Of a DNA stretch of 64,000 bases, positions 4,727 through 45,992 are shown in pieces. The number at the start of each line of letters is the position of its first letter. The first letter of the stretch is position 1. The notes below the pieces were generated by a model. It ran no database searches. It saw only the letters and a list, made by a program, of their open reading frames with translations, and had not been told where the DNA came from. The DNA is from Polyangium mundeleinium (GTDB lineage Bacteria; Myxococcota_A; Polyangia; Polyangiales; Polyangiaceae): contig NZ_JAQNDO010000001.1 in the NCBI RefSeq assembly GCF_028369105.1, positions 1,843,711 to 1,907,710 of the forward strand. The letters run 5' to 3'. Position numbers and translations under genes: made by a program.

Positions 4727-6175
4727 TTACGCGAACCGGACCGAAATCGCTCCGTGCGAGGGCGGCGCGGAGGGGCGCGACGCGGGCAAACGCACGACGA
4801 AGACGGCGCCCGTCGGCTCGTTGCCCTCGATGTGCACGCTCCCGTGGTGCGCCTCGACGAGCCGCTTCACGATCGAGAGCCCGAGCCCCGTGCCGCCGTG
4901 CTCACGCGTCGAGGACTGATCCACCTGGTAAAACGGGTCGAAGACCTTGTCGCGCTCGGCGGCCGGGATGCCGATGCCCGTGTCGGTCACGCGCACCTCG
5001 ACCATCTGCCGGAGCGGCGCGAGCAGCACCATCCCGGGCTCGTCGCCGCCGTCCACCTCGGTGGCCATCTGCCGCGCGACGATCTGCACCGTGCCGCCCG
5101 GCGGCGTGAACTTGATGGCGTTCTCGCCGAGGTTCACGAACACCTGCCGCAGCCGCTCCGGATCGCCGAGCACGAGCGGCAAGTCCGCCGGCGCGTCCAC
5201 GGTGAGCGTGACGCCCTTTTTCGTGGCGACGGGCGCGACCGTCGAGGCCGCCTCGGCGAGCACCGCGCCGATCGCCACGTCGCTCCGGCGCATCATCACG
5301 GTGCCGCTCTCGAGCTTCGAGAGGTCGAGCAGGCTCATGATGAGCTTCAGGAGCTGATCACTCTTCGAGTGGATGATCTGCACGAAGTCGAGCTGCGGCC
5401 CCGTGAGCTCGCCGGCGATGCCGCCCACGAGCATCTCGCTGTAGCCGAGGATCGAGGTGAGCGGCGTCCGGAGCTCGTGCGAGATCGTTGCGAGGAAGTT
5501 CGACTTCAGCTTGTCGAGCTCTTGCTGCCGCTCGTAGGCCTGCTCGAGCGCCGCGTTTTTCTCGGAGAGCTCGCGGTAGCTCTCGCGGATCGACGCGATG
5601 TGCATCTTCGAGGTGAGCAGGGCCTTGTGCCCGCTCCAGAGGATCACGTCGAGCACGGCGACGAGGTGCTTCGCGACGGTCTCGGCCGTGGCCTCGGTCG
5701 CCCGCGCCATGTGCGGCAAAAGCTCCGCCGCGCGCGCCGGGTCGACACCCTCGATCGCGAGCAGCGTGTCGGGGACGCTCTCGACCTCCGGAGAAAGGTA
5801 GGGGCCGAGGATCGCGCGGCCGATGGTGCCGCCTTCGTATTCGATCGGGACGACGCGGTAGCGCGCGCCGGTGAAGCAGCCGTGCGTGGCGCCTTCGCTC
5901 GACGTGACGCGGAGGCGTTTGACCTCGGAGACGATGGCGCCGCAGGCGCGGCGGCCCACGGGCTCCTCGTTGATCATCGCGCAGAGCGGGGCCTCGCGGG
6001 ACGAGCTCGCCAGGCTCACGCCCGAGTTCGACACGATCCGGACGGGCATGCCGAAGACCTGCTCGATCGAGCCGACCATGCCACGCATCGCTTCGCGGTC
6101 GACGAGGTCTTCGAGTCGGAGCGGTCCGAGCCCGAGGCCAAGCGCGTCGACGTCGACCGAGCGCTCGTCGCTCAA
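4727..6175 (-). CDS. Sensor histidine kinase with N-terminal PocR-like sensory domain
   Basis: H-box FLATISHELRTPL and ATP-lid HGGTGLGLSIV are present. The N-terminal ~150 aa form a Cys-containing sensory domain, tentatively PocR-like. The start is uncertain: TTG at 6175 has a GGAGG SD and overlaps the upstream stop, while the first ATG is at 6088. Confidence 0.8.
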   Translation of the reverse strand: MSDERSVDVDALGLGLGPLRLEDLVDREAMRGMVGSIEQVFGMPVRIVSNSGVSLASSSREAPLCAMINEEPVGRRACGAIVSEVKRLRVTSSEGATHGCFTGARYRVVPIEYEGGTIGRAILGPYLSPEVESVPDTLLAIEGVDPARAAELLPHMARATEATAETVAKHLVAVLDVILWSGHKALLTSKMHIASIRESYRELSEKNAALEQAYERQQELDKLKSNFLATISHELRTPLTSILGYSEMLVGGIAGELTGPQLDFVQIIHSKSDQLLKLIMSLLDLSKLESGTVMMRRSDVAIGAVLAEAASTVAPVATKKGVTLTVDAPADLPLVLGDPERLRQVFVNLGENAIKFTPPGGTVQIVARQMATEVDGGDEPGMVLLAPLRQMVEVRVTDTGIGIPAAERDKVFDPFYQVDQSSTREHGGTGLGLSIVKRLVEAHHGSVHIEGNEPTGAVFVVRLPASRPSAPPSHGAISVRFA

Positions 6176-6903
6176 GGAGCGCCTCCGGGCGCAGCGCCGG
6201 CCATCCTCCCGCCCATTCGCGCGGCGATGAGCTCGCGGAATGGCGTCGTCACGCCGAGCTGCTGCGCCGCGGTCGAGACGAGGTCGTCGCCGTCGATCGA
6301 GAGCTTGCGCGAGAGCTGATGGCTCTGATCGAGCGAACGCCACGTGGACCAGAGCAGGCAAACGAACGTCTCGACGACGCCGATGCCCCTCGTCGCGACT
6401 GCGCGGAAGACCGGCTCCTTGCCGCGTGCTGCGAGCCGCGCGAGCTCTTCGTCGCTGCGGATGTCCGGCAGATCCCGTTTGTTGAACTGGATCACGAGCG
6501 GCATCTTCGAGATCTCGATGCCGTTGTCGCGCAGGTTCTGGCGCAGATCGAGGAAGGCGTCGGCGTTGCGTTGGGTCTCGGAGATGCGCGAGTCGGCGAT
6601 GAGCGCGACGCCGTCGGCGCCTTGCAGGACGAGCCTGCGGGTCGCGGCGTGGATCGGCTGGCCGGGGACCGTGAAGAGCTTGATGCGGAGCGAGACGTCG
6701 CCGTCCTTCGAACGGAACGTGAGCGGCAGGAGATCGAAGAAGAGCGTGCGATCGTCCTGCGTCTCGAGCGTCATGAGCCGCCCGCGCGCGTCGGCGCCGG
6801 CGCGGCTGTGCAGAGCGACCAGATTTGTGGTCTTTCCGCTCAGCGCAGGACCGTAATAGACGAGCTTGATCGAGATCTCGCGTGATGCGAAATCGAGCTG
6901 CAC
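6172..6903 (-). CDS. MglA-family small Ras-like GTPase paralog with ~50-aa C-terminal extension
   Basis: SREISIKLVYYGPALSGKTTNL (P-loop), DRTLFFDLLPL and TVPGQ align closely to M. xanthus MglA. GTG start. No MglB/roadblock gene is adjacent. Confidence 0.8.
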   Translation of the reverse strand: MQLDFASREISIKLVYYGPALSGKTTNLVALHSRAGADARGRLMTLETQDDRTLFFDLLPLTFRSKDGDVSLRIKLFTVPGQPIHAATRRLVLQGADGVALIADSRISETQRNADAFLDLRQNLRDNGIEISKMPLVIQFNKRDLPDIRSDEELARLAARGKEPVFRAVATRGIGVVETFVCLLWSTWRSLDQSHQLSRKLSIDGDDLVSTAAQQLGVTTPFRELIAARMGGRMAGAAPGGAP

Positions 6904-13658: not shown

Positions 13659-14918
13659 TCAGAACTTGAACGACACGACGCCGCCGCCGCCCGTCGGACC
13701 GACGAAGGGCGCGACGACCGGCTTGTAGAGCTTGGTCGTGGCCGTCTGCTGGGCGGGCTTGTCATCGCCGCCGAACAGCAGCACGGCGCCGGTCACGCCG
13801 AACGTGAGCGCCACGGCGAACGACATGTCCGCGATGAGCGCGTTGCGATCGGTCTTGTCGGCGTTGTCGACCGTCGGGTTCGCTTCGAAGTCGCTCTTCG
13901 CGCCGAGCGCCGAGACGCCGAAGATCGTGCCGACGACTGCGCCCACACCCGCGAGGCCGAGCGTCACGTACGCGGGGACGTACGACTTCGGTGCGGCCGG
14001 CGGAGGCGGCGGGGGCGGCGGAGGCGGCGGGGGCGGCGGGGGCGGCGGAGGCGGCGGGGGCGGCGGAGGCTCGGCTTCGAGCGTCGGCGCCGGCAACTCC
14101 CTCGTCTCCCCGAAGGCGACCTCGACCTCTTGTGGCTGCGAGGTGATGAAGCCCTTCGCCGAGTAGACGAGCGTGTGCTTGCCCGGCTCGAGCTTCAGCT
14201 CGCCGGCGGGCGCGGGCTCCTTGCCGTCGACCGCGACCAGGAGGCCCGCGGCCGTCTCCGGCGTCGTGGCGATCTTGACCGTCGCAGGCGTCTTCTTGAG
14301 CGCCTCGATCTTGGCCTTCGCCTCGTTGACGCGGTCTTCCCACTTCTTGGGATCGAACTTCTTCTTCTTGTCGGCGGCCTGCTCGTCGATCGCCGCGAGG
14401 AAGCCCTGGTAGGCCGCGACGGCCTCCTGCACCTTGTTGAGCTTCTCGAGCGCGACAGCGACCTTGAACTTCGCGTTGAGGCCCGGGAGCGTCTCGTCGG
14501 CGGTCTTGTACGCGTCGAGCGCGGCCTGGAACTCGCCCTTCTCGAAGGCGGTGTCGCCGTCCTTCAGGGCCTGCGTCGCGATGTCCTTCTTCTGCTTGTC
14601 GGTGAGAGGCTTCGCCGGCTTCGCGGCGGCGGTCTTCTCGTCCTTCTTCGCAGGAGCGGCGGCGGCCTTGTCGTCCTTCTTCGCAGGAGCGGCGGCGGCC
14701 TTGTCGTCCTTCTTCGCGGGCGCCGCGGCAGCCGCGGCCTTGTCGTCCTTCTTGGCCGGCGCCGCCGCAGCAGGCTTCTTGTCCGCGGCGGGGGCGGCGG
14801 GCGCAGCGGCAGGAGCCTTCGCCTGCGCGTACGCCGCCGGAGACGCCGTGAGCGCCAACAGACTCGTGAGCACTGCTGCCGTGTGCAACGACGTCAGCCG
14901 GCCCGAACTCGATCGCAT
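13659..14918 (-). CDS. Secreted protein with AAPAKKDDK repeats, TPR-like segment, PEGA-like domain, 26-residue poly-Pro and C-terminal Phe
   Basis: Signal peptide ASPAAYA/QA. A run of 26 consecutive Pro codons lies at ~13997-14069. The C-terminus VVSFKF resembles an OM beta-barrel signature. Confidence 0.55.
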   Translation of the reverse strand: MRSSSGRLTSLHTAAVLTSLLALTASPAAYAQAKAPAAAPAAPAADKKPAAAAPAKKDDKAAAAAAPAKKDDKAAAAPAKKDDKAAAAPAKKDEKTAAAKPAKPLTDKQKKDIATQALKDGDTAFEKGEFQAALDAYKTADETLPGLNAKFKVAVALEKLNKVQEAVAAYQGFLAAIDEQAADKKKKFDPKKWEDRVNEAKAKIEALKKTPATVKIATTPETAAGLLVAVDGKEPAPAGELKLEPGKHTLVYSAKGFITSQPQEVEVAFGETRELPAPTLEAEPPPPPPPPPPPPPPPPPPPPPPPPAAPKSYVPAYVTLGLAGVGAVVGTIFGVSALGAKSDFEANPTVDNADKTDRNALIADMSFAVALTFGVTGAVLLFGGDDKPAQQTATTKLYKPVVAPFVGPTGGGGVVSFKF

Positions 14919-15053
14919 ATCTAAGCCCTCCTCACTCGTCTCTGCTCGACTCTCTGAGTTTCGCTGAATTAACTCGCGCTGCCTGCGCGACACAAGAGGT
15001 TTGAGCAGCGCGCGTCCTTGCACCCTCTCGGTGCCTCCCCCCTCCCGCGTGTG

Positions 15054-15787: not shown

Positions 15788-18103
15788 ATGTTTGTCGAGT
15801 GTTGTGCGCGGCGACGATCGGCGCGTGGGGCGCCGGCGAGAGCACGGAGGTCGGTCGTGGAGATGAGCGTGACGATGCCGGCGGCGGGGATGGCAGGGAC
15901 GCCCGAACGGATCCCGGGCGCCGCGTTCCGAGCTGCGGCGGCCCTGCACCTGCAACGAAACACGCACCTCTCACGCGAAGCCCTCGCGCGGGACCTGCGC
16001 GATCGGCTCGCGCGGCGCGGGATTCGCTACCACCTGCGCACGCTGAAGCGGCAGCTCTCGGGGGCGGTCGCGACGGTGCCGCCCGAGGTCGACCGCGCGC
16101 TGCGAGAGGCGATCGCCGAGGTGGGAGGCGAGGACGCGATCGCCGCAGTCGAGCGTGCCCTCGTCGAGGCCGGGCTCGCGGGCGCGTCCTCGGCCACGGC
16201 GCCCACGTACATCGTCTGCGAGCGGATGCTGCCGCTCGCCCAGCTCTGGCTCTACCTGCACCCCGAGCGATCGAAGCGTGCGCTCGCTTTTCGCCTGCGC
16301 GAGGAGCTCGAGCGGAGCGGGATCCGCCTCAACGTCGACTCGCTCCAGAGCATCCTCGCCGGTAAGCAGAGGCTCGTGCGGCGCGAGATCCAGGACGCGC
16401 TCTTCGCGCTCCTGCGCCACGATGGCGTGACGTCGTCGGCCGACGCCGAGGCGCGCATCGACGCGATGTCGCGCGAGATCCTCGGCGCGCAGGAGGGCCG
16501 GGTCTTCGAGAGCGCGCGCCGGATCCACGAGCTCGCGAAGGCGTGGAAGGTCGAGCACAAGGAGCCGTCGTCACGCAGGCTCGCGCTCTTGCTCAAGGAG
16601 CGGCTCGCCGAGCGAGGGGTCGTGATCGGCCTGCCGCACGTGCAGAAGCTCGTCGACGGGCGCGCGCGTCGCGTGCGGCATGCAATGTCGAGGGCGATCG
16701 AGTCGATCCTGCGCGGAGACGCGGCGTCTGTGGTGATCGAGGCGCCCGCCACGAAGGACGGGCCGCCCACGGGCGTCGAGCTGGATCTCGCCTGGGTGAA
16801 GGCCGCGCCCATCGCCGAGCTCGCCCGCAAGCACGTGGCCGAGAACCCGGGCATGACGATGCGCAAGCTCGCGATCCGCATTTCGCGTGAGGTCGAGGCA
16901 TTCGGCTACGTCACGAGCCCGAACACGATCCAGCCGATCCTTGGGGGTCATAAGAAGAAGACGCGCGGCTTCATCTACCGCGCCATGCTCCACCTCGACG
17001 GCGTCGCGCCGACGCGCGTGCCCGAGGAGCACGTCTTCGGGGCGCCGCACGGCGAGCGCTCGACCGAGCCTCCACCCTCGGCGGATCCACCGCTCGACGC
17101 CGAGTCACGCCCGCGGAGTCATCTCGCCCCAAAAGCATCGAGCCCTGACGGGGCTGCCCGCAAGCCGCGCCCCGAGGGCCTCGGTTCGAGCCCGGCGGCG
17201 CAGTCCCCGTTCGGGGCGTATCGCGCGGCGATCCGGCGGTATCAGGTGCTCGATCGTGAGACCGAGCTCGATCTCGCCTGGCGGTACCGGCGCGAGGGCG
17301 ATCACGCGGCCGCGAACACGCTCGTGGAGAGCCACCTGCAATTCGTGGTGAAGGTGGCCGCGCAGTACCGAGGTTACGGCATGCAGCTCTCCGACCTCGT
17401 GGAGGAGGGCAACCTCGGCCTGCTCGAAGCGGTCCGACGGTTCGAGCCGTCGCGCAACCTGCGCTTCAAGACGTACGCGGTCTACTGGATCCGCGCCTAT
17501 ATCGTGGACCACTTGCTCCGCGAGTGGAGCATGGTCGGCGGCGGGACGGGGCCGCTCGTGTCGCGCACGTTTTTCCGGCTGCGGCGCGAGCGGGCCAAGC
17601 TCGAAATGCAGCTCGGCGAGGGCGACGCCTCGATCGACACGTTGCTCGCGACCCGGTTCCAGACGACGGAGGACGCGATCCGATCGATGTCGCAGCGGGT
17701 CGCGTCGCGCGACACCTCGCTCGACGCGCAGGCGCGAATGGAGGGCGGGCCGACGCTGCTGGAGATGCTGCGCGATCCGTCGTCGGATCCGGAGCACCTC
17801 ACGGCGAGCGCGGAGCGCGACGCGTTCGTCCGCGGCGTGGTGGGCCGCGTGTGGAAGGCGCTCGACCCACGCGAGCGGCTCATCGTGGAGGAGCGGCTGC
17901 TCTCGGACGACGACGAGGTGAGCCTCGCGGATCTCGGCCGTCGTCTCGGCGTCTCGCGCGAGCGCATGCGGCAGCTCGAAGCGCGTACGAAGTCGAAGCT
18001 TCGCAGCGCGTTCGAGGCCGTCGTGCGCGAAGGCAGCGAGGCTGCCGAGGTGCTGCTCGCGGCGACGCAACCCGAGCCCGAGATCGAAGCGCTCTGCGCT
18101 TGA
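15788..18103 (+). CDS. RpoH-like sigma-70 family factor with ~480-aa N-terminal extension built from four ~55-aa repeats
   Basis: The C-terminal 290 aa carry sigma regions 2-4 (VESHLQFVVKVAAQYRGYG...EEGNLGLLEAVRRFEP). The N-terminus shows four repeats of LAxRLREELERRGIR..L..L.G. Alternative start at 15863. Confidence 0.85.
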   Translation: MFVECCARRRSARGAPARARRSVVEMSVTMPAAGMAGTPERIPGAAFRAAAALHLQRNTHLSREALARDLRDRLARRGIRYHLRTLKRQLSGAVATVPPEVDRALREAIAEVGGEDAIAAVERALVEAGLAGASSATAPTYIVCERMLPLAQLWLYLHPERSKRALAFRLREELERSGIRLNVDSLQSILAGKQRLVRREIQDALFALLRHDGVTSSADAEARIDAMSREILGAQEGRVFESARRIHELAKAWKVEHKEPSSRRLALLLKERLAERGVVIGLPHVQKLVDGRARRVRHAMSRAIESILRGDAASVVIEAPATKDGPPTGVELDLAWVKAAPIAELARKHVAENPGMTMRKLAIRISREVEAFGYVTSPNTIQPILGGHKKKTRGFIYRAMLHLDGVAPTRVPEEHVFGAPHGERSTEPPPSADPPLDAESRPRSHLAPKASSPDGAARKPRPEGLGSSPAAQSPFGAYRAAIRRYQVLDRETELDLAWRYRREGDHAAANTLVESHLQFVVKVAAQYRGYGMQLSDLVEEGNLGLLEAVRRFEPSRNLRFKTYAVYWIRAYIVDHLLREWSMVGGGTGPLVSRTFFRLRRERAKLEMQLGEGDASIDTLLATRFQTTEDAIRSMSQRVASRDTSLDAQARMEGGPTLLEMLRDPSSDPEHLTASAERDAFVRGVVGRVWKALDPRERLIVEERLLSDDDEVSLADLGRRLGVSRERMRQLEARTKSKLRSAFEAVVREGSEAAEVLLAATQPEPEIEALCA

Positions 18104-18220: not shown

Positions 18221-18904
18221 CTACGGCTTCTTCTCGGGCGGCGGCGGGTTCGGCGGGGCAAACACCTGCGTCCGGAACGCGAGCTTTCGATCCGCGTCGC
18301 CGATCCGCGCGACGAAGAGACCCACGAACGATCCGAAGAGCGAGTCGCCGGGCCCGATCGCGGCCGAGCCGTTCGGGCGCGTCACCCAGCGCTTGATGCG
18401 ATCCTGCGTCTCCTGGCTGATCGGGTTCACCTCGACGAGCCCGGCCACGAAATACCGGCCGTTGTCTTCGAGCTGCGAGCGCTCGATCATGCGTAGCTTC
18501 CGGGCCTCGGCGCACTGGCGCAAGACGCCCTCGATGTTGACGGCGACCGTATCGACGAGCCCGCCCGGCTGCGTGATCTGCAGGCGAAAGACCTCGTCCC
18601 AAAGATCGTAGACGACGCGGCACGTCTTCGCCGTGAGCGCGACGGGCTCGGTGCCCCCGTCACGGAAGATCCAGGCGCGGAGCACGATCACCGTGGGCAA
18701 GCCGCTCGAGAGCTTCTTCTCGATCTCCGCGTCGACCACGTCGCGGAAGGGCACGCTGAGGACGGCCTGCTTGCCCTCCAGCGCGACGACTGCGTTCCTC
18801 GTCGGCAGGGCCGCCGGGGTCTTCGGCGGCTCCGCGCGCACGGTCACGGCCGGTGCGGTCAGGGCGGCGAGGGCCAGCGCGAAGAGCGCCGCCCGCCGGG
18901 TCAT
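18221..18904 (-). CDS. Small secreted/periplasmic protein
   Basis: Signal peptide AVTVRA/EP. Its ATG abuts the Omp85 stop (stop 18901-18903, start 18902-18904), suggesting an operon. Confidence 0.5.
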   Translation of the reverse strand: MTRRAALFALALAALTAPAVTVRAEPPKTPAALPTRNAVVALEGKQAVLSVPFRDVVDAEIEKKLSSGLPTVIVLRAWIFRDGGTEPVALTAKTCRVVYDLWDEVFRLQITQPGGLVDTVAVNIEGVLRQCAEARKLRMIERSQLEDNGRYFVAGLVEVNPISQETQDRIKRWVTRPNGSAAIGPGDSLFGSFVGLFVARIGDADRKLAFRTQVFAPPNPPPPEKKP

Positions 18905-20394
18905 TTGCGTGCACCGTTGCGCGCGGCGACGAGCCCGAGCACGTTCGAAAACGCGACCGTCACGCCGCCGAGCTTCGTGTCGAGACGCAAGCCGAGGTTG
19001 CCCGTGACGTCGACCGGCAGGCGCGACCAACCACGGTACCCCGTTGGCGGATCCGTGAACTCGCGGCGCGTCGCCACCGAATAAATGCCCGCCGACGCGA
19101 AGAGGTCCACGCCGTAGACCGACTCGCGCCCCGTGTAGAGCGGGATCCGATACTCGCCCTCGATCTTCGCGGCGAAATTGCCGTAACGGACCTCGATGAT
19201 GTCCGTGCCGAGCAAGTTCGGCGGCTGCCTCCGATCCGGCGCGAGCGCGAGCAGGCGATCGGGCAGGAGGTCGGTGAAATCTCCGACGTAAAACTGTTCG
19301 AAGAAGGGCGCGTCGCCCGCGATCGCGCCCACGTACGCGTCGAACCTCACGACGTGCCGCCACGGCAGGCGCCACCAGCGCCGCAGCGTCCCCTCGAACT
19401 TCTGGAAGCTGTAATCGGTGCCCGGGATCCCGACGGTCACGGACGCCTGCGCGTGTGTCCCGCGCGCGGTCAGGAACGGCGCGTCGCGCGTGTCGTACGT
19501 CAGCGTGCCGCGCACCGTCGAGAGCACGCTGCGGCCGGGCCGGATGGAGAAATCGACCGGCTCGCGCGAGAGCCCGCGCATGTGCGAGGCCGCGACGGGC
19601 ACGGTCGCGTCGATCTGTTCGAGGTGGTAGTCGAGCGCGAAGGACGAGGAGACGCCGAGGTCGTGGCCGGTGCCGATCGTGGCGCCGAAGCGGCGGTAGG
19701 CGACGACCGCGTAGTCCGTCACCTCGCGCTGCGCGATGAGCGGCGCTTCGAAGAGGACGTCGCGGTTGCCGAAGAAGTCGCGCGCGTCGTTGTAGAGCAC
19801 GGTGATCGCGGCTGACCAGCCCGTCCCGACGAACGAGGGATCGACGAAGCTCGTGCGCAGCGCGAACTGATCAGCGGCGAGCGCGACGCCCGCGCCGAGC
19901 GTGATCCCCGTGCCCGCGAGGTTCGTCTCGGCCACCTGCACGCCGAGGAACGCCGAGAGCGGGCGCGCATTTCCGGCCGTGTCTTCATCCGCGGCGACGC
20001 CGGCCCAGAGGTTCTGCACGACGAGCGTGTTGCGCTCGACGACCTCGATGATGAGCACGGCGGCGCCGCGCCGCGACCCCTTGCGCAAGCTGAGATCCAC
20101 CTGCGCGAAAAAACCCGTGCCGAGGAGCCGGTAGCGCGTGAGCTCGAGCTCCGGGTCGTCGACGTCGAGCACATCCCCCGCGCGGAACTTCACGTAGCGA
20201 AGGACGACGCGCCCTGCGGTGCGGACGTTGCCGCGCAGCTCGATCCCTTCGAGCGTGTAGCGGAGGCGGGCCCGTTGCTGCGGCTCCGGCGGCGTGGTCG
20301 TGCTCGGCGACGGCGGATCGGCAGCCGCGGCGAGGGCCGGCGTCGCCACGACGGCGAGGGCGGAGAGCCAGACGAGCGATCGCGCGCCGATCAC
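18901..20394 (-). CDS. Omp85/BamA-family outer-membrane beta-barrel with one POTRA domain
   Basis: A signal peptide and a single POTRA-like domain precede a surface-antigen barrel. Confidence 0.8.
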   Translation of the reverse strand: MIGARSLVWLSALAVVATPALAAAADPPSPSTTTPPEPQQRARLRYTLEGIELRGNVRTAGRVVLRYVKFRAGDVLDVDDPELELTRYRLLGTGFFAQVDLSLRKGSRRGAAVLIIEVVERNTLVVQNLWAGVAADEDTAGNARPLSAFLGVQVAETNLAGTGITLGAGVALAADQFALRTSFVDPSFVGTGWSAAITVLYNDARDFFGNRDVLFEAPLIAQREVTDYAVVAYRRFGATIGTGHDLGVSSSFALDYHLEQIDATVPVAASHMRGLSREPVDFSIRPGRSVLSTVRGTLTYDTRDAPFLTARGTHAQASVTVGIPGTDYSFQKFEGTLRRWWRLPWRHVVRFDAYVGAIAGDAPFFEQFYVGDFTDLLPDRLLALAPDRRQPPNLLGTDIIEVRYGNFAAKIEGEYRIPLYTGRESVYGVDLFASAGIYSVATRREFTDPPTGYRGWSRLPVDVTGNLGLRLDTKLGGVTVAFSNVLGLVAARNGARK

Positions 20395-20434
20395 GTGCTT
20401 CGTCCGCTGCCCCGCGACATCGCCCGGCGTGCGC

Positions 20435-22372
20435 TCACTTGACCTTGGGGATGTACTGCGGGAGGACGAAGTACACGAGCTTGATCCCGTTCTTGCCGCC
20501 GAGGACCTGCCCGTCAGGCGTACGTACGCGGATCAAGGCGCGCATCACGAGCAAGGTCGCGGGCTTGATCGTGTTGTTCACGGCGTGCACGCGGAAGCTC
20601 ACGGGCGCGTCGCCCTGCAGGCCGAAGAACGTGGTCTCCGTGCGGCTCGCGTAGGGCAGGGGAGAGGCCGCGCTCTCGAGCGTCTCGATCTTCGTGATGA
20701 GCGTGCTCGCGTCGAACGGCGCCATCCCCTGATCGACCGGCGGGTTCTGGTATGCGAGGTCCGGCACGCCGTCGCCCGTGCAATCGATGCCGCCGTCGCA
20801 CGCGTAGTTCTCGCGCGCCGTGGTCACGTCGTGCAGGCCCGCGTCCGCGAGCCGGCCGAGCAGGCGCACGACCTCCTGCGACACCGAGCCGCTGCCGACG
20901 TCCGTCTTCGGCACGAGCGGGTGGTCTTTCCCGCCAAACGCGGGGTCGTGGTAGAGGCTGCCCGTCTGCGTGGCGAGGTCCGTGAGGTCGGCCCGCGCCG
21001 CGCCCGGGCTGCCCGTCGCGACGGGCACGCCGACGACCTTCGCGTTGATGTTGTTCAGCGCGGTCACGGCCTCGGCGTACGTCTTCACCGTCCCGCCGAC
21101 CTTCGCCCCGTCGTACTGGTGCGTGACGTTCGGCCCGTTGTGGAACGCGGCGTCCGTGATGAGCACGAAGATCGGCAGCGACTCGGGCCGGAAGCAGGGC
21201 GCGCCGATGCCGCCGGCGAGCGGACAGGTGTACTGCGGGTAGTTCCAGATCCCGCCGATCGTGAGCGCGTAGTTGTTCGGGTTCGTCGCGGCGAGCCAGA
21301 GCGCTTGGGATGTCCCCTCGGGCGCGTCACCGCCGCCCCCCGCCGTGAGCGTGCCGAGGATCTGCTTCGTCGCGATCGGCGCCGTGTACTTCTGCCCGTC
21401 GAACACCGGCGGCGCGAGGTCCCCGGCGATCGTTTGAGCACCAACCTGGAAGCGATACCGATAGAGCGCGTCCCCGTCCTGCCCGTACGGCAGCCACGGC
21501 ACGTCGCGCACCTCGCCCACGCCGATCCACGCGTCGCCGATCGCCGGGATCGGCGGGGTCGCCGTGGGATCGCCGTTCAGGATCGCCGGGATGATCTCCG
21601 TGTCGATCGACGCCTTCAGGTTGTCGATCGCGGGCTGCATCGAAGCCGTCGTGTCGATCAGGAAGTAGATGTCGGCCTTCGTGACGCCGGTCGAGAACGT
21701 AAAATCCTTCGTCTGCTCGCCGCCCTGGTACGGCAGGACGAAGTAGAGCCCCGCATCCACAGGAACCGAGCCCTTCTCCGTCGGGCTCGATCCAGCCGCG
21801 AGCTCGACGAGATCGATGACGCCGTCGTCGTCGCAATCGACGCGCACGCGGCAGCCCTTCGTGCCGTCCGCGTCGTACGTCGTCTCTTGCGTGTCCGACA
21901 CGCCGTCGTTGTCGCTGTCGAGATCGCGCACGTCCGGATCGCCGTCGCCGTCCGAGTCCGCGAGCGGATCGCAGCTATCGTCACGCGTTTGTCCGGGCTC
22001 GCCGTTCAGGAGGAAGGGGTTTGCCGCTTCGTCCGCGTCGAGCACGCCATCGCCGTCGCTGTCGTTGTCGAGCGCATCGGGCGTACCGTCGCCGTCCGTG
22101 TCCTTGTCTGGGCCGAGCTCGAGGAAATCGGCGATGAGGTCCTTGTCCTTGTCCGTCGGATCGCCGCACGTCCCGCCGGAGTCGAGGAACAGCGTGCCTC
22201 CCTCACCGCCCGCGCCCATGCCGGACGAGGACGAGTTGCCATCACCGCTCGCGCCAGCGCCCGATCCGCCGGGATTGATCCCGGAGTCGGGCGAGCAGGC
22301 CAGCGGGACCGAGGCGGCCGCCACGAGGAACGAGAGCCCGAGGCCAAACGAGCGCAAGCGATTCTGCTTCAT
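20435..22372 (-). CDS. Lipoprotein with thrombospondin type-3 Ca-binding (DxDxDGxxD) repeats and vWA-like domain
   Basis: Lipobox PLACS. Multiple DTDGDGTPDALDND / DSDGDGDPD repeats are followed by a vWA-like segment with IDTTASM (DxSxS-type). Confidence 0.7.
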   Translation of the reverse strand: MKQNRLRSFGLGLSFLVAAASVPLACSPDSGINPGGSGAGASGDGNSSSSGMGAGGEGGTLFLDSGGTCGDPTDKDKDLIADFLELGPDKDTDGDGTPDALDNDSDGDGVLDADEAANPFLLNGEPGQTRDDSCDPLADSDGDGDPDVRDLDSDNDGVSDTQETTYDADGTKGCRVRVDCDDDGVIDLVELAAGSSPTEKGSVPVDAGLYFVLPYQGGEQTKDFTFSTGVTKADIYFLIDTTASMQPAIDNLKASIDTEIIPAILNGDPTATPPIPAIGDAWIGVGEVRDVPWLPYGQDGDALYRYRFQVGAQTIAGDLAPPVFDGQKYTAPIATKQILGTLTAGGGGDAPEGTSQALWLAATNPNNYALTIGGIWNYPQYTCPLAGGIGAPCFRPESLPIFVLITDAAFHNGPNVTHQYDGAKVGGTVKTYAEAVTALNNINAKVVGVPVATGSPGAARADLTDLATQTGSLYHDPAFGGKDHPLVPKTDVGSGSVSQEVVRLLGRLADAGLHDVTTARENYACDGGIDCTGDGVPDLAYQNPPVDQGMAPFDASTLITKIETLESAASPLPYASRTETTFFGLQGDAPVSFRVHAVNNTIKPATLLVMRALIRVRTPDGQVLGGKNGIKLVYFVLPQYIPKVK

Positions 22373-23379: not shown

Positions 23380-24042
23380 TCAGCGAGGCCCGCGTCGGTT
23401 CGCTTTTTCCTCGTGCCCGCTCGTCCCTGCGCGCGCGGCGAGCACGTGCACCACCTCGCGCAGCGACACGCCACGCGACGCGAGCCCCACGAGCACGTGG
23501 TACACGAGATCCGCGGCCTCGTTCGCGACGCGCGTGTCGTCCTCGCCTTCGATCGCACGGACGAGCTCGTCCGCCTCTTCGCGGATCTTCGCGCCGATCT
23601 TCGCCGGGCCTCCGTCGAGCAGCGACCGCGTGTAGCTCTTCTCCGCGCTCGACGTGCGCCGCGCCTCGATCTCGCGCTCCAGCACGTCGAGGAACGCGGC
23701 TGCATCCACGCCGGACTCCGCGGCGATCCCGCGCTCGTCCACGCGGCGGAAGAAACACGCGGGTTTGCCCGTGTGGCACGTCGGCCCGACCGGATCCACG
23801 AGCAGGAGCAGCGCGTCGGCGTCGCAGTCCGCGACGATCGTCGCGACGGCGAGCGTGTTGCCACTCGTCTCGCCCTTCTCCCAAAGCGCGCCGCGGGATC
23901 GACTGAAGAACGTTGCTCGCCCCGTCTCGATCGTCCGTTCGAGCGACGCGCGGTTCATGTACGCGAGCATGCGCACCTGACCCGTCAGCCTGTCTTGAAC
24001 GATTGCGGGCAAGAGCCCCGCCTCGCCCCAGGCGAGCTCCAC
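23380..24042 (-). CDS. hisIE: Bifunctional phosphoribosyl-AMP cyclohydrolase / phosphoribosyl-ATP pyrophosphatase
   Basis: HisI cyclohydrolase and HisE MazG-like halves are both present. GTG start. Confidence 0.85.
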   Translation of the reverse strand: MELAWGEAGLLPAIVQDRLTGQVRMLAYMNRASLERTIETGRATFFSRSRGALWEKGETSGNTLAVATIVADCDADALLLLVDPVGPTCHTGKPACFFRRVDERGIAAESGVDAAAFLDVLEREIEARRTSSAEKSYTRSLLDGGPAKIGAKIREEADELVRAIEGEDDTRVANEAADLVYHVLVGLASRGVSLREVVHVLAARAGTSGHEEKANRRGPR

Positions 24043-25586
24043 GCTTCAGCTCTCCTCGGACGGGGGCGGCTCCGAGGTCCGCTCTTCCTCCACCGGCTTC
24101 TTCTTCGTCTTCTTCGTCGCGACGGCCTTCGGCGCCTCGTCCGACGCGTCGGCCTTCTGCGCCTTCTTCGCGGCTTCTTCTTCACGCGCGGCGCTTCGTC
24201 CTCATCCTCGTCCGCGTCTGCATCCGCGGCCTTCTTCGTCGCCGCGGCCGGCTCGCCGTCCTCGTCCTCGTCCTCGTCGGCGACGTTGCTCTCGGCCTTC
24301 TTTTCGGCCGCTTCGTCGTCGATGTAGGCAAGCTGCGGGATCGCCATCGCCGCTTCCGGGTGAGCGAGCGCGGCCTGGTGATAGACCGAGAACGCGAAGG
24401 CCGCTGCGACGCCCGTGCTGAGCGCCACGGCTTGTGATGTCGACAGCTCGATCGTCGCCGAGGTCCCGAACGACTCGGGCCGAAGCGCGAGGAAGAGCAC
24501 GACGGCCGGGACGAACGCGAGGATCTGCGACAGGCGCCGCATCGTCGGGTTCTCGACCATCTTCGAGATGCCGACCACGTAGCCGACCGCGAAGAGCGAG
24601 AGCGCGAGCGGCAGGAGGATGTGCTCGGGCAAGGACGGCGGGATCCAGCCGCGCTCGTCGTCCGCGCGCAGCATCTCCAGCAAGAAGCGTCCGACGCCGT
24701 AGGCGAACGTGAAGATCAAAAAGATTTGACCCCGAAACTTCTGATACCGCCGCGAGACCAGGAGCAGCACGAGGAGCGAAACGCCGACGAGCGACTCGTA
24801 GACCTGCGTCGGGTGCACCGGGAGCGATGCCGTCGCGTCGTCCTCGATGAGGTGCTTCTTCACGTGCTGGATCCAGGCCGGCGAGCCGGCAGGCGCGCCG
24901 CTCGGCGTCTCGATCACCGAGGGATCCCAGCGAGGGAACGTGCCGAGCTTCTGCAGCCACGCGGGCGCTGTCTTCGCGAGCGGCTGGCCGAAATCACAGC
25001 CGAACAGGTAGCAGCCGACGCGCGTGATCATGAGGCCCGACGCGAGGCTCGGCACCGCCACGTCCGCCCACGGCAGGAGCGGGATCCCGTGACGCCGCAG
25101 GAACACCAGCGATCCGATGAATCCGCCGAGAAAGCCGCCGTAGGCCACGAGCCCGCCCTTGCGGACGTCGAGCATCGCGCCGAACGACTCGAACTCGTTC
25201 AGGTTCGTAACGATGTACAGGATGCGCGAGCCCACCACCGCGGCCACGGCCGTGACCACGTAGTTGTTCGCCATCAGCTCTTTCGGCAGCCCATCCCGCT
25301 CCGCGAGCCCGAGCGTCAGATACCAGCCCACGACGAGCGACAGGCCGAGCATCACGCCGTAGCTGTAGATGGGCAGCGGGCCGACAGGCACCGTGCTCGC
25401 GCGGAACACGAACGCCGCGGCGCCGAGGGCCACTGTCGCGATGGCAGCGCCGATCGCGAAGGCCCTGTTCTTCGTCACGAACTGGTAGATCGCGACGATC
25501 GCCGCGATCCCCGCGAGCGCGCACAGGACCCAGAGCAGGGGTAGCGTCGTGCGCGGGAGCGGCACGCGGAACAGGATCGGATGCAT
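23985..25586 (-). CDS. lgt: Prolipoprotein diacylglyceryl transferase with Lys/Ala/acidic C-terminal tail (probable frameshift near 24170-24200)
   Basis: Lgt signature core YGFGCDFGQP. As printed, the frame runs into a poly-Arg stretch overlapping hisIE by 58 nt. The alternate frame gives a compositionally consistent KKAQKADASDEAPKAVATKKTKKKPVEEERTSEPPPSEES tail ending at TGA 24046-24048. Confidence 0.85.
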   Translation of the reverse strand: MHPILFRVPLPRTTLPLLWVLCALAGIAAIVAIYQFVTKNRAFAIGAAIATVALGAAAFVFRASTVPVGPLPIYSYGVMLGLSLVVGWYLTLGLAERDGLPKELMANNYVVTAVAAVVGSRILYIVTNLNEFESFGAMLDVRKGGLVAYGGFLGGFIGSLVFLRRHGIPLLPWADVAVPSLASGLMITRVGCYLFGCDFGQPLAKTAPAWLQKLGTFPRWDPSVIETPSGAPAGSPAWIQHVKKHLIEDDATASLPVHPTQVYESLVGVSLLVLLLVSRRYQKFRGQIFLIFTFAYGVGRFLLEMLRADDERGWIPPSLPEHILLPLALSLFAVGYVVGISKMVENPTMRRLSQILAFVPAVVLFLALRPESFGTSATIELSTSQAVALSTGVAAAFAFSVYHQAALAHPEAAMAIPQLAYIDDEAAEKKAESNVADEDEDEDGEPAAATKKAADADADEDEDEAPRVKKKPRRRRRRPTRRTRRRRPSRRRRRRRSRWRKSGPRSRPRPRRAEAWSSPGARRGSCPQSFKTG

Positions 25587-26448: not shown

Positions 26449-28203
26449 ATGGAACACGCCGAGGTCGAACGCGCCCTGGAGGATCTCGACAGCCGACTCG
26501 AACGGCTGCGAGCGCTCTACGAGCAGTACTTCCTCGGCATCGAGAAGCTCGAGCCGCTGGTCCCGCGCAAGGAGCTCGAGCGGCGCATCATGCTCCTGCG
26601 CCGCGAGCAGATCCGGAACACTGCGCTCCGCTTCAAGTTCCAGACGCTGATCCAGCGCTACAACACGTTCCAGCAGTACTGGGGCCGCGTCGCGCGCGAG
26701 ATCGAGAACGGCACCTACCAGCGCGACGTGCTCCGCGCGGCCGCGCGCTTCGGCACGAAGGACGCGCTGACGATCGTCGGCAAGAAGCAAAAAGAGAAGT
26801 ACGCGAAGCTCGCCGCCGCACAGGAAGAGCGACGCGCCCGCATCCGCAAGGAGGCGCTCACGCTCGACGAGGAGGTGCTCGCCGACGAGGATCTCCTGGC
26901 CGACGAGGTCGAGGATGTCGCGGACGAAGAGCTCGCCGACGACGCGCTCGAGTTCACGACCGCGGAGCCGCCGCCGGCAAAGGCCGCGCCGCCGCCGCCC
27001 CCGAAGCCCGCCGCGCCGCCGCCCCCGCCCGCGGCCTCGAAACCGGCCGCGCCGCCGCCCCCGCCTGCGGCCCCGAAACCGGCTGCGCCGCCACCGCCGC
27101 CTTCGAGCCCGGGACGAATCTCCGCGCTGCCTCCGCCGCCGCCCGCGATCGGAAAAGCGCCTCCACCGCCGCCCGCGCCGGGCAAACCTGCCGCGCCGCT
27201 GCCGCCTCCCGCGGGCAAACCCGCCGCGCCGCCGCCGCCTCCCGCGGGCAAACCTGCCGCGCCGCCTGCGCCTTCGCTCGCCGCGAAGGCCCCGCCGCCT
27301 CCGCGCCCGCCGCTCGCCTCGACGCCGCTCGATCGTCCTTCCGCGCCTCCGCCTGCGCCGCCGCCCGAGCCTCCGCCCGCGGCGAAGCCGGCCGAGCCCG
27401 CGCCGCCCGCCAAGCCGGAGCCGACGAAAAAGCCCGAGCCCGTGCCGCTGATGATGATGATGCGCCGGCCCGAGGCGTCGATCGCATCCAAAGCCGCGGA
27501 GCCGAAGCTCGCGGAAACGAAGCCTGCCGAGGCGCCTCCGCCGGCCGACGCGCCGGCCGCGCGACGCCCGCAGGCTTCCTCGCCCGACCTCGGCAAGCGC
27601 CGCGTCGCTGAGCTCGCGGCCCAGGCGAAACAAGGCAAAGCGGGTCTGAGCGGCCCTGCCTCGGCGCGCCCGCTGGACCTCGACCTCGACCTCGACGCAT
27701 CGAAGCAAGGGCCGCCCTCGCGACGCAGGCCTTCGAGCACACGCACGCGGGCCGCCGTCCACGTCCCGACCGTGTCCGATGAGCCCGTGCCGAGCGTGCC
27801 GGCGCCGTCCTCGCGCCGGAAGAGCAGCCGCAGCATACGCGCGGTCGTCGCGCCGCCGCCGCCCGATCCTCCGCCCGAAGCGCCGGCACCTCCTCCGGAT
27901 ACGGACACGCCCGCGCCCGAGGCGCGCCTTCAGCCTGGACCACGCCCCGCGCCAGCGCGACCTCGCCCGTCGCAGGGGTCGTCCGAGGACCTCTCGGACG
28001 CGCGGATCCGTCAGATTTACGCGCAGTACGTCGAGGCCAAGCGCGCCGCGAAGGAGTCGACCGCGGGCGTCACGTACGAGGCGCTCGCCAAGCAGCTCCG
28101 CCAGCAGGCCGAGAAGCTCAAGGCTTCCCACCCCCAAAAAACGGTCGACTACAACGTGGTGATGAAGGACGGCAAACCCACGCTCAAGCCGATCCTTCGC
28201 TAG
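26449..28203 (+). CDS. Proline-rich protein with conserved N- and C-terminal domains
   Basis: A ~130-aa helical N-domain is followed by a ~250-aa linker of KPAAPPPPP repeats and a conserved C-terminal domain (IRQIYAQYVEAKRAAKE...). No TM segment. Confidence 0.65.
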   Translation: MEHAEVERALEDLDSRLERLRALYEQYFLGIEKLEPLVPRKELERRIMLLRREQIRNTALRFKFQTLIQRYNTFQQYWGRVAREIENGTYQRDVLRAAARFGTKDALTIVGKKQKEKYAKLAAAQEERRARIRKEALTLDEEVLADEDLLADEVEDVADEELADDALEFTTAEPPPAKAAPPPPPKPAAPPPPPAASKPAAPPPPPAAPKPAAPPPPPSSPGRISALPPPPPAIGKAPPPPPAPGKPAAPLPPPAGKPAAPPPPPAGKPAAPPAPSLAAKAPPPPRPPLASTPLDRPSAPPPAPPPEPPPAAKPAEPAPPAKPEPTKKPEPVPLMMMMRRPEASIASKAAEPKLAETKPAEAPPPADAPAARRPQASSPDLGKRRVAELAAQAKQGKAGLSGPASARPLDLDLDLDASKQGPPSRRRPSSTRTRAAVHVPTVSDEPVPSVPAPSSRRKSSRSIRAVVAPPPPDPPPEAPAPPPDTDTPAPEARLQPGPRPAPARPRPSQGSSEDLSDARIRQIYAQYVEAKRAAKESTAGVTYEALAKQLRQQAEKLKASHPQKTVDYNVVMKDGKPTLKPILR

Positions 28204-28875: not shown

Positions 28876-30798
28876 TTACTTGCAGCGCGGAGGGAGCGCG
28901 GCCTTTGCACTGCTGGCGCCGATCGACGCCGCCGAGTCCGCGATGGGCTTGCCCGCGCACCCCTTGGACTTCACCTCACGCGCGGCCGAGGCGTCGATCG
29001 CCGAGAGCGCCTTGCTCCGCTTGGGCCCGGTGCACGAGCGGTACTGGCTGATCGCCATCGTCGTGTTGCCGCCATACGCATACGTGATCGCCGCGTCGCA
29101 GGCCTTGTCGCCCGCGGCGTCGACCTTCGGGCCGCTGCCCGAGCCCGAGGCCGTCGTCGCCGCGGAGCCGGAGCCCGCGTTTGATCCGGTGTTCGAGCCC
29201 GTGGTTTGTCCGGACTGCGCCGAACCACCCGCGGAGGAGGCCGTCCCCGCGACACCCGCGCTGTCCGCCGGATTCGCCGTCGGATCGGAGGCGACCACGA
29301 CAGTCGTGGGGGCCGCGGACGGCATCAGGATGACCTCGCCATCGCCGCCGCTCTTGCTGCTGCGGGTCGCGAAGATCGCGATCACGATCCCGATCACGAC
29401 GAGCGCGCCGATGCCCGCGATGATCGGCATCGGGCTGCTCTTTTGCTGCTGCCTACCGCCCATCGGCGGAGGCGGCGGCGCGGCGTAGGCCGGTCCGCCC
29501 ATCTGCATGGGCGCGTGGCCGTGCTGCGGCGGCATCGACACGACCGGCATCGGCCCCGGTGTCATCGCGGCCGCGCTGGGACCCGTGTCGACCATCGTTC
29601 GACCCCCCGGCGCGCTCGGCGCTCCTTGCGCGAAGAGCGGCTCACCGATCTGCGTGCCGCCGGGACGCGCGGGCATCGGGCCGCTCGGCATGCCTTGCAT
29701 CTGCCCGCTCGGCATCCCGTACTGTCCGCTTGGCATGCCGGGCATCTGTCCGCTCGGCATCCCGTACTGTCCGCTCGGCAGGCCTGGCATCGCCGCGGTG
29801 CCCGCGACTTGCTGCTGACCCGTCGCACCCCCAACCATCGACGCGCGCCCGGCTCCGATCGAGATCTCATCGTAGAACTCGCGCACGGACGACTGGCGCT
29901 TGTTCTTGTCCTTCTCGAGCGCGCGCATGATCGCGGTCTTCATCTTCGGCGGCACTTGCGCGCCGAGCGGCGTCACCTCGAAGGGCGAGGGCTGCGCCGT
30001 GAGGTGCTGCGTGGCCCAGGCCCACGGCGTGTCTGCGTCGAAGGGCAGCCGCCCGGTGAGCATCTCGTAGGCGACGATCGCGAGCGAGTAGACGTCGCTG
30101 CGCGCGTCGAGCTCCTGCCCGCGGAACTGCTCGGGGCTCATGTACGGCGGGGTGCCGAGCACCGTGCCTTGCTGCGTGAGCTTCTGCTCCTTCGAGTCGG
30201 GCCGCTCGCCGCGTTTGGCGATGCCGAAGTCGAGCACCTTCACGAAATCGTCGCCGTCGATCTTCGTGAGGAAGAGGTTCGCGGGCTTGAGATCGCGGTG
30301 CACGATCCCCTTGCTGTGCGCCTCTTGGAGCGAGCCTGCGGCCTGTCCGATGATCTTGTCGACGCGCTCGGGCGGCATCGGTCCCTTGTGCGCGAGCTCG
30401 TCCTCGAGCGGACTTCCTTCGAGCAGCTCCATCGCGATGTAGAGCTCGCCGGTGTTCGTCTGCCCGAAGTCCCAAACTTGGATCGTGTTCGGGTGCTTGA
30501 GCTCGGCGACGGTGCCGCACTCGCGGTTGAAGCGCGCGAGCACTTGCGGATCCTTCGCGTACTGCGCGAGGAGCGTCTTGACCGCGGCCTTTCGGACCGT
30601 CGTGCCCATCTGCTGCTCGGCGGTGTAGACGCGGCCCATGCCGCCTTCACCGAGCACGCCCGTGATGCGGTAGCGACCGCCCACGATCGACCCGATCAAC
30701 GGGTCTTCTTCGGAAGGCGCTGAGGGCAGCGGCGCTCCGCATTTGGCGCAGAAGCGCGCTCCATCGATGTTCGCGTGTTGACAGGCGGGACACTCCAT
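28876..30798 (-). CDS. Ser/Thr protein kinase with N-terminal zinc ribbon, Pro/Met/Gly-rich repeats, one TM and Cys-containing extracytoplasmic tail
   Basis: CPACQ...CAKCG zinc ribbon, then a Hanks kinase domain (HRDLKPANLF, DFGIAK). PSGQMPGM repeats and one TM helix follow. Confidence 0.85.
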   Translation of the reverse strand: MECPACQHANIDGARFCAKCGAPLPSAPSEEDPLIGSIVGGRYRITGVLGEGGMGRVYTAEQQMGTTVRKAAVKTLLAQYAKDPQVLARFNRECGTVAELKHPNTIQVWDFGQTNTGELYIAMELLEGSPLEDELAHKGPMPPERVDKIIGQAAGSLQEAHSKGIVHRDLKPANLFLTKIDGDDFVKVLDFGIAKRGERPDSKEQKLTQQGTVLGTPPYMSPEQFRGQELDARSDVYSLAIVAYEMLTGRLPFDADTPWAWATQHLTAQPSPFEVTPLGAQVPPKMKTAIMRALEKDKNKRQSSVREFYDEISIGAGRASMVGGATGQQQVAGTAAMPGLPSGQYGMPSGQMPGMPSGQYGMPSGQMQGMPSGPMPARPGGTQIGEPLFAQGAPSAPGGRTMVDTGPSAAAMTPGPMPVVSMPPQHGHAPMQMGGPAYAAPPPPPMGGRQQQKSSPMPIIAGIGALVVIGIVIAIFATRSSKSGGDGEVILMPSAAPTTVVVASDPTANPADSAGVAGTASSAGGSAQSGQTTGSNTGSNAGSGSAATTASGSGSGPKVDAAGDKACDAAITYAYGGNTTMAISQYRSCTGPKRSKALSAIDASAAREVKSKGCAGKPIADSAASIGASSAKAALPPRCK

Positions 30799-31006
30799 GA
30801 TGCGGCGCGAGCATCGCAAGAGGCGCGCGTGTGGTGCAAGAAGTTGCGGCAGGACGCGTCGCGAGGATCGTGCCTCGCCTGTCTGGTCTCACGCGGGTTC
30901 GCGATCCAGCGTGCCGGGGGAGGTGACCCTGCCGGGTCTCCCGTGGATTCCGGCCTCTCGAGCGCGGCTGGGGTCCCGCTCCAAACAACAAAACCTTCCA
31001 TCCGGC

Positions 31007-45888: not shown

Positions 45889-45992
45889 CGGCCAGGTACG
45901 CGCCGTCCCGTGCTGATCCGCCGGATGACTGCTGTTTCGGCGGGTCTTGGGATACCCCGTCCTTGCGGACATGTACTATCTCTGCACTCGCG

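Follow-up and report, generated by a model that had tools for sequence, protein, structure and literature searches.

Three neighbouring genes on the minus strand of a 64-kb stretch of the Polyangium mundeleinium genome (hereafter the window; all coordinates are positions within it) encode a predicted lipoprotein with TSP3 repeats and a vWA domain, an outer-membrane barrel of the Omp85 superfamily, and a small secreted protein. We find that the genes for the barrel and the small protein are inseparable and overlapping across two clades that share ~30% identity, and that they are conserved at the level of housekeeping genes. Our leading interpretation, which we hold tentatively and with slightly less than even confidence, is that the functional unit is a two-gene cassette, made of a BamA-like Omp85 barrel with a single POTRA domain and a coupled protein of the DUF4390 family. 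The two proteins would form an outer-membrane complex that probably senses the state of the envelope.

Conservation of the gene pair

All three open reading frames (ORFs) were found on the minus strand: the lipoprotein (645 amino acids (aa), 20435-22372; supported by its ORF, its motifs and a homologue alignment), the Omp85 barrel (497 aa, 18901-20394) and the small protein (227 aa, 18221-18904). Their predicted domains and tight spacing bear out the three-gene description given in a first-pass annotation. That annotation placed 40 nucleotides (nt) between the lipoprotein and barrel genes, and the sequence gives exactly this distance from the stop codon of the former to the GTG start of the latter (20395-20434). 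The stop and start that it described as abutting at the next junction are really a 4-nt overlap, in which the start codon of the small gene and the TGA stop of the barrel gene share an ATGA (caaATGAccc, 18901-18904). By sequence, this overlap is a signature of translational coupling. No terminator-like hairpin was found in the 40-nt gap, and the counts of the promoter and terminator scan were within chance, which makes the scan uninformative.

Two sets of loci were surveyed. Clade A, to which the window belongs, comprises 80 loci from species-representative genomes of Polyangiales (Polyangium, Sorangium, Chondromyces, Minicystis, Byssovorax, Labilithrix and many metagenome-assembled genomes (MAGs)). 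These loci were anchored on the small protein and their gene content was read by tblastn with the window proteins. Clade B comprises 80 loci on metagenome contigs, for which the scan used an alignment of distant small-protein members only. Loci are called informative when they have enough flanking sequence for the neighbour in question.

The Omp85 gene lies directly upstream of the small gene, on the same strand, at 79 of the 80 clade-A loci, the exception being a locus with just 74 nt of upstream sequence. A single-POTRA Omp85 that is 27-36% identical to the one in the window takes the same place at 77 of the 80 clade-B loci. Two of the exceptions there are truncated contigs. At the third (L122, 1-1075), the gene found 190 nt upstream, in the opposite orientation to the small gene, encodes a Zn-ribbon kinase, and an Omp85 gene would not fit. 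We also counted the loci at which a start codon is available at -4 relative to the Omp85 stop, and found it at 73/79 loci of clade A and 69/77 of clade B (142/156 together). Because the same overlap is available in two deeply diverged clades, it exceeds chance.

Conservation of the pair between Polyangium and Sorangium is 74% and 70% for the two proteins, which is the level of hisIE and lgt. All ~20 Sorangium genomes have the order lgt-hisIE-orf298-Omp85-small-sirC, without the lipoprotein gene. In Labilithrix the pair sits between a glutathione S-transferase (GST) gene and a YkuD gene, and every flank differs from those in the window. No conserved third gene was found in the Labilithrix-type loci, where the neighbours are of housekeeping type only (GST, YkuD, UvrC, helicase).

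Patchy linkage of the lipoprotein

The first-pass annotation had taken the three genes for one co-conserved unit, with the lipoprotein as the cognate substrate of the barrel, and had named operon conservation as a check. The Omp85-small pair is conserved, and the three-gene arrangement is conserved only in part. Among the 69 clade-A loci with sufficient upstream sequence for scoring, it adjoins Omp85 in 19 and is absent from that position in 50; the genera in which it is missing there are Sorangium, Minicystis, Byssovorax and Labilithrix. In clade B the vWA lipoprotein is adjacent at 0 of 15 loci. On a neighbour-joining tree of Omp85 and the small protein its linkage is patchy: Polyangium, Chondromyces, several branches of MAGs and two deep branches (L056 and L077) have it, and Sorangium, Minicystis, Byssovorax and all of the Labilithrix-type half lack it.

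Lipoprotein homologues are also found away from any barrel gene. One that is 63% identical to the window protein (P0309) lies on contig JANYGI010000061 of a Byssovorax MAG that carries its Omp85 pair on another contig (JANYGI010000160). Tandem pairs of TSP3/vWA lipoprotein paralogues (P0347 and P0346) occur without a nearby Omp85 at two loci (L002, 8001-12205; L166, 5001-9202). The tandem paralogues are ~615 and 786 aa long, with a 4-nt overlap between their genes, and the family has several copies in these bacteria. The 786-aa neighbour was considered as another barrel and rejected, as it is a second TSP3/vWA lipoprotein.

The trio is nevertheless kept in some lineages. It is linked in Chondromyces crocatus, in the MAG GCA_016218915 and on one Joint Genome Institute (JGI) contig, the last two with both flanks changed, and it also occurs on branches whose Omp85 is just 58-60% identical to that of the window. 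Since the trio is kept with changed flanks and on diverged branches, a lineage-specific client relationship is possible. Based on the surveys of clade-A loci and of loci anchored on the lipoprotein, we conclude that the conserved unit is the pair and that the lipoprotein is a facultative though long-lived neighbour. The idea that the barrel has a linked partner was right as to strict linkage and wrong as to the partner, which is the small periplasmic protein and not the lipoprotein.

The predicted lipoprotein itself consists of an N-terminal acidic TSP3 region, a vWA-like domain and a Cys-containing C-terminal region. Its signal peptide has a hydrophobic h-region and ends in VPLA-C26. Cys26 is invariant among 30 homologues and is preceded by A or G at -1; the -3 residue of the window copy is Pro, which lies outside the strict PROSITE lipobox rule. 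Residues 74-190 hold six DxDxDGxxDxxD/E motifs of the TSP3 type, the repeated DxDxDGxxDxxD pattern by which bacterial TSP3 repeats are recognized, and their Asp residues are invariant across homologues. Asp or Glu makes up 32% of residues 66-195. Many of the homologues have recorded matches to TSP3_bac (PF18884) or VWA_4, and their source names are VWA or TSP3 proteins. The VWA_4 match of the window copy is 23.4 bits, under the Pfam cut-off of 27. A conserved D240-T-T242-A-S244 together with T406-D407 fits a variant of the metal ion-dependent adhesion site (MIDAS; DxSxS...T...D), and another eight Cys are invariant or almost invariant.

The Omp85 barrel

The barrel belongs to the Omp85 superfamily, with a PF01103 match of 64.9 bits against a cut-off of 24. 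The protein has a signal peptide, a Pro/Thr linker of ~20 residues, a POTRA domain at residues ~45-120 and the barrel. Its single POTRA match in Pfam is sub-threshold (17.3 bits). An AlphaFold2 (AF2) model with a mean predicted local distance difference test score (pLDDT) of 75 and a predicted template modelling score (pTM) of 0.74 shows one POTRA and a barrel of ~16 strands. In a Foldseek search the model matched POTRA5 and the barrel of BamA (E=4e-22, 17-19% identity), and the BamA-RcsF structure 6t1w was among the matches. The layout, a POTRA followed by a barrel, is thus shared with BamA, on whose POTRA5 and barrel the model superposes.

The differences from BamA concern the domains, the loop-6 motif and the genomic setting. 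The match to the BamA equivalog model of NCBIfam (TIGR03303) is 111.4 bits, far under the cut-off of 297.15, and covers only positions 321-680 of the 741 in the model. BamA has five or more POTRA domains, and the window protein has one, as does that of clade B. Instead of the canonical loop-6 (L6) motif (V/I)RG(F/Y), which is part of FYAGGFNSVRGF in BamA, the aligned segment of the window protein reads FYVGDFTDLLPDR, and the loop-6 region in clade B is IHIADVNRMLTPR. The motif is replaced by DFTDLLPDR in the window and by DVNRMLTPR in clade B, and in both clades only an Arg is kept nearby. The C-terminus is non-aromatic. Genes of the skp, surA or bamD type are not linked to the pair at the locus, unlike in Myxococcus xanthus, where the canonical Omp85 MXAN4728 adjoins the OmpH protein MXAN4727 (PMC3222651).

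Neither did the locus resemble the other Omp85-based systems. No locus protein matched the TamA or TamB families in Pfam or NCBIfam, and the three POTRA domains and adjacent TamB (DUF490) gene that mark TamA were not found. The barrel has no POTRA_2 or ShlB match in Pfam, as a TpsB protein would, and the Pfam scan found no two-partner secretion (TPS) or haemagglutination domain in the lipoprotein or the small protein. These scans give no support to the two-partner or TamA-like layout suggested by the first-pass annotation; the separation of the barrel from the housekeeping BamA and TamA, on which that annotation depended, stands. We consider the barrel to be a BamA-like paralogue in its predicted fold, and not a BamA equivalog. 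Heinz & Lithgow (2014) described several BamA paralogue groups in myxobacteria, as well as "BamA-like" proteins that have 1-3 POTRA domains and always occur alongside BamA; assembly functions were hypothesised, and no partners or functions were assigned to those groups (PMC4104836). The window Omp85 falls within this myxobacterial BamA-like class, which is loosely defined.

The small DUF4390-like protein

The signal peptide of the small protein is cleavable (TVRA|EPPKT), and the protein has two Cys that do not vary within its clade. A domain search of this protein, which had been proposed as a check, touched a single Pfam family, DUF4390 (PF14334). The match of the window copy is 22.7 bits, under the gathering threshold (GA) of 27. 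DUF4390 is however the sole Pfam match at E<0.01 in 29 of 40 diverse members from both clades (best E 1.6e-9). Some homologues have a precomputed PF14334 match, and one is named DUF4390 by its source. An exhaustive profile-free search gave 484 clusters of relatives, down to ~27% identity, which share VVYDLWDE and NPxS...RRWLxRP...FFGSFVSxFVN...FRSQxF. From these matches the small protein is probably a distant, PlrP-like member of the DUF4390 family.

Its structure model (pLDDT 66) has a beta-sandwich core like those of immunoglobulin (Ig) and fibronectin type III (FN3) domains and a Pro-rich tail. The C-terminal segment GPGDSLFGSFVGLFV...FRTQxF is highly conserved and yet is modelled as disordered: the best-conserved stretch of the protein, residues 172-203, has a pLDDT <50 in the monomer model, as would be expected if the segment folds on a partner.

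The only DUF4390 protein that has been studied is PlrP of Bordetella, which is secreted and proline-rich and whose gene shares 4 bp with plrS; genetic data indicate that PlrP curbs the phosphatase activity of PlrS, an NtrY-family kinase, via the periplasmic domain of the latter (PMC13001219). Both PlrP and the small protein are small and secreted and have a proline-rich region. What lies upstream differs, as plrP follows rsmB and the small gene follows the gene for the Omp85 barrel.

A sensor kinase gene in clade B

Directly after the small gene, 52 of the 53 informative clade-B loci have a gene for a membrane sensor histidine kinase (~490 aa) with a periplasmic domain at residues ~36-185 and a HAMP-HisKA-HATPase architecture. 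This order, a small gene followed by a membrane sensor kinase gene, is that of plrP and plrS. A PDB search with the clade-B kinase gave matches of the ZraS, FixL and CpxA type, and a literature search with its H-box string returned nothing. Upstream of the clade-B pair, the divergent strand encodes a lipoprotein of 144 aa, a Zn-ribbon Ser/Thr kinase and a SelD-like AIRS protein. The clade-B cluster (L085-L164, e.g. L134, 973-8127), on high-GC contigs from soil and wetland, also includes a gene for a ~160-aa lipoprotein-like product on the strand of the pair and the kinase gene.

The window has a histidine kinase gene of its own (4727-6361), which was considered as the missing partner of the small protein. 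It encodes a PocR-HisKA-HATPase protein and was rejected because it lacks a HAMP domain. A Zn-ribbon Ser/Thr protein kinase is also encoded in the window (28876-30819, minus strand) and shares 40% identity with the kinase encoded divergently beside the clade-B cluster. In Chondromyces and at several other loci of clade A, a similar kinase gene is found at a distance of 5-8 kb from the pair. Their proximity may be a remnant of a shared ancestral context.

Interpretation and alternatives

Under the cassette interpretation, Omp85 and the small protein would form an outer-membrane complex of ~1:1 stoichiometry. The small protein would dock on the POTRA domain, the periplasmic mouth or the lateral seam of the barrel by means of its invariant, intrinsically unstructured FGSFV...FR(T/S)QxF segment. 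The complex could then report the state of the outer membrane, or of outer-membrane protein (OMP) assembly, to a signalling partner in the inner membrane, with a logic like that of BamA-RcsF and PlrP-PlrS. The TSP3/vWA lipoprotein would be an accessory of certain lineages (Polyangium, Chondromyces and a few other branches), acquired or retained there, and might act as a client or as an arm that binds ligands at the surface.

Several observations weigh against this interpretation. At none of the 76 loci scored in clade A, the clade of the window itself, does a kinase gene follow the small gene (0/76), which in this respect differs from plrP. The signalling part of the interpretation therefore draws on the sister clade and on a weak, sub-GA homology to PlrP. 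Pfam and NCBIfam searches detected no NtrY_N or PAS domain in the clade-B kinase, which has only generic HAMP, HisKA and HATPase matches and partial matches to histidine kinase equivalog models. The structure model of the small protein is moderate in quality and its fold matches are to generic Ig/FN3 domains. By precedent, Omp85 barrels that bear POTRA domains are insertases or translocases, which favours the alternatives below. Finally, the pairs of clades A and B could be orthologues or co-resident paralogues.

A rather unlikely alternative, in our judgement, is that the pair is an auxiliary insertase similar to BAM (the beta-barrel assembly machinery), where some myxobacterial OMPs are folded by a BamA paralogue that has a non-lipoprotein accessory subunit of its own and the adjacent kinase of clade B is regulatory or coincidental. 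The predicted fold and the best family matches are indeed those of BamA, assembly functions have been hypothesised for the BamA-like and paralogue groups (Heinz & Lithgow 2014, PMC4104836), and the pair shows housekeeping-level conservation in a core chromosome position, with lgt, hisIE and the rpoBC cluster nearby. However, the canonical L6 motif is missing in both clades, even though the Arg is kept, and no skp, surA or bamD-type gene is linked. The one studied member of the partner's family is a modulator of a sensor kinase, and the kinase adjacency in clade B is hardly a coincidence at 52 of 53 loci. Another alternative, that the barrel is just the housekeeping BamA (or TamA) and its neighbours are unrelated, is very improbable. 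It would account for the best NCBIfam match being the BamA equivalog model and for source annotations that read "BamA/TamA family", but that match falls far below its cut-off (111 bits against 297) and is confined to model positions 321-680, the protein has one POTRA rather than five or more and no VRGF motif, the bamA-skp context of M. xanthus MXAN4728 and MXAN4727 (PMC3222651) is absent, and the stop/start overlap with the small gene is conserved.

In the alternative closest to the first-pass annotation, the barrel would be a dedicated factor for export or assembly, on the model of two-partner secretion, TamA or Slam. It would bring the Ca-binding vWA lipoprotein to the surface of the cell, and the small protein would act as a periplasmic chaperone or adaptor. 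We regard this alternative as unlikely. The 40-nt gap, in which no terminator was found, the persistence of the trio in Chondromyces and where both flanks have changed (GCA_016218915 and the JGI contig), the linkage on branches at 58-60% Omp85 identity and the adhesin-like hallmarks of the lipoprotein (lipobox, disulfide Cys, TSP3 motifs and MIDAS-like site) all speak for it. Against it, the lipoprotein is absent at 50 of 69 clade-A loci and at all clade-B loci while the Omp85 pair is still strongly constrained; in a Byssovorax MAG that carries the pair, a 63%-identical homologue lies apart from it; paralogues stand in tandem without any Omp85; and no TPS domain, POTRA_2 domain or TamB/DUF490 partner was found. 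Because most lineages lack a linked lipoprotein and the pair is strongly constrained in them all the same, an exporter fails to explain the persistence of the pair.

Known systems offer partial parallels to the proposed cassette. BamA works with the lipoproteins BamB-E, whereas the partner here is a soluble protein of the DUF4390 type, and the searchable papers mention no such partner for the BamA-paralogue groups. In BamA-RcsF and NlpE-CpxA, a protein held by an Omp85 barrel of the outer membrane, or located at it, reports the state of the envelope to an inner-membrane phosphorelay, a likeness that is conceptual and not one of membership; RcsF and NlpE are lipoproteins unrelated to DUF4390 and use the housekeeping BamA, not a dedicated paralogue. 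TamA-TamB and TpsB-TpsA similarly have an Omp85-family barrel gene beside the gene of a dedicated partner or substrate. TamA, however, has three POTRA domains and pairs with the large DUF490 protein TamB, and TpsB is marked by POTRA_2 domains and a substrate that carries a TPS domain; none of these features was detected in the window system. The mitochondrial Sam50 has the same single POTRA and 16-stranded barrel, but there is no specific sequence relationship, and Sam35 and Sam37 are unrelated to the small protein.

It is possible, although we find it doubtful, that the cassette goes further, as part of a trans-envelope signalling relay in which a dedicated BamA paralogue has become the outer-membrane arm. 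A PlrP-like protein would be held by Omp85, and its binding or release would inform a sensor kinase of the outer-membrane or OMP-assembly state. In clade B the kinase gene would belong to the same operon, whereas in Polyangiales it would lie elsewhere or have been replaced; the Ca-binding vWA surface lipoprotein would provide the extracellular input in some lineages. If true, this would be a hard-wired Omp85-to-kinase sensing system and would suggest how DUF4390 proteins work in general.

We found no description in the searchable literature of an association between Omp85 and DUF4390 proteins, or of Omp85 paralogues linked to kinases. The extra BamA-type paralogues of myxobacteria have been known since 2014, without partners or functions, and the first genetic function of a DUF4390 protein, that of PlrP, was reported only in 2025-26. 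The overlapping pair and the clade-B kinase join these two poorly understood families and lead to a testable hypothesis, that of a periplasmic modulator anchored on an Omp85 barrel. For studies of surface export, the analysis corrects the unit to be considered, as the linkage of the vWA lipoprotein to the barrel is lineage specific.

Surrounding genes in the window

The G+C content of the 64-kb window is ~70%, and the three proteins of the locus are 96-98% identical to counterparts on a scaffold of Polyangium fumosum DSM 14668 (NZ_SSMQ01000084). The locus lies in a core chromosome region, ~9 kb from the start of the tuf-rpoBC cluster. Upstream, the same strand carries lgt (PF01790), hisIE and a gene for a 298-aa protein without a family match. 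Downstream lie an oppositely oriented gene for an RpoH-like sigma factor, a SirC-like NAD_binding_7 gene and a gene for a secreted protein of the TPR/PEGA type (13659-15023, minus strand).

The TPR/PEGA-type protein has a run of ~25 prolines and C-terminal hydrophobic segments, and was assigned by the position and domain matches of its homologues: PEGA and TPR matches were found in the homologues, and the window copy has no Pfam match at E<0.001. Homologues are encoded within 4.5 kb downstream of the pair at 42 of the 68 informative clade-A loci, some of which share no other flank, and the protein is possibly an additional component of the system.

The gene for the sigma factor (771 aa, 15788-18103, plus strand) converges on the small gene. 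The C-terminal 270 residues of the protein resemble RpoH/sigma-32 (TIGR02392, 238 bits, under the cut-off of 323), and its N-terminal extension of ~470 aa has no family match. It holds this position only in loci of the genus Polyangium (L005-L014 and L017). The lgt-hisIE-orf298 block is syntenic across Polyangiaceae. Lgt, the prolipoprotein diacylglyceryl transferase (PF01790, 533 aa, 23985-25586, minus strand), is encoded two genes upstream of the lipoprotein; it has a long C-terminal tail, first acidic and then Arg-rich, and its ORF overlaps that of hisIE by ~58 nt.

Further from the locus, a 584-aa protein (26449-28203, plus strand) has a very long Pro/Ala-rich middle part and an MXAN_5187 C-terminal domain (NF041621, 87.6 bits). 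A protein that combines MshEN, HD_5 (HD-GYP-like), response-regulator receiver and DUF4388 domains is encoded directly after rpoC (45963-48170, plus strand). A second vWA protein, unrelated to the lipoprotein, combines BatA_N, VWA_2 and DUF4350-like regions (895 aa, 51971-54658, minus strand), and its gene sits in the most GC-rich stretch of the window (0.76).

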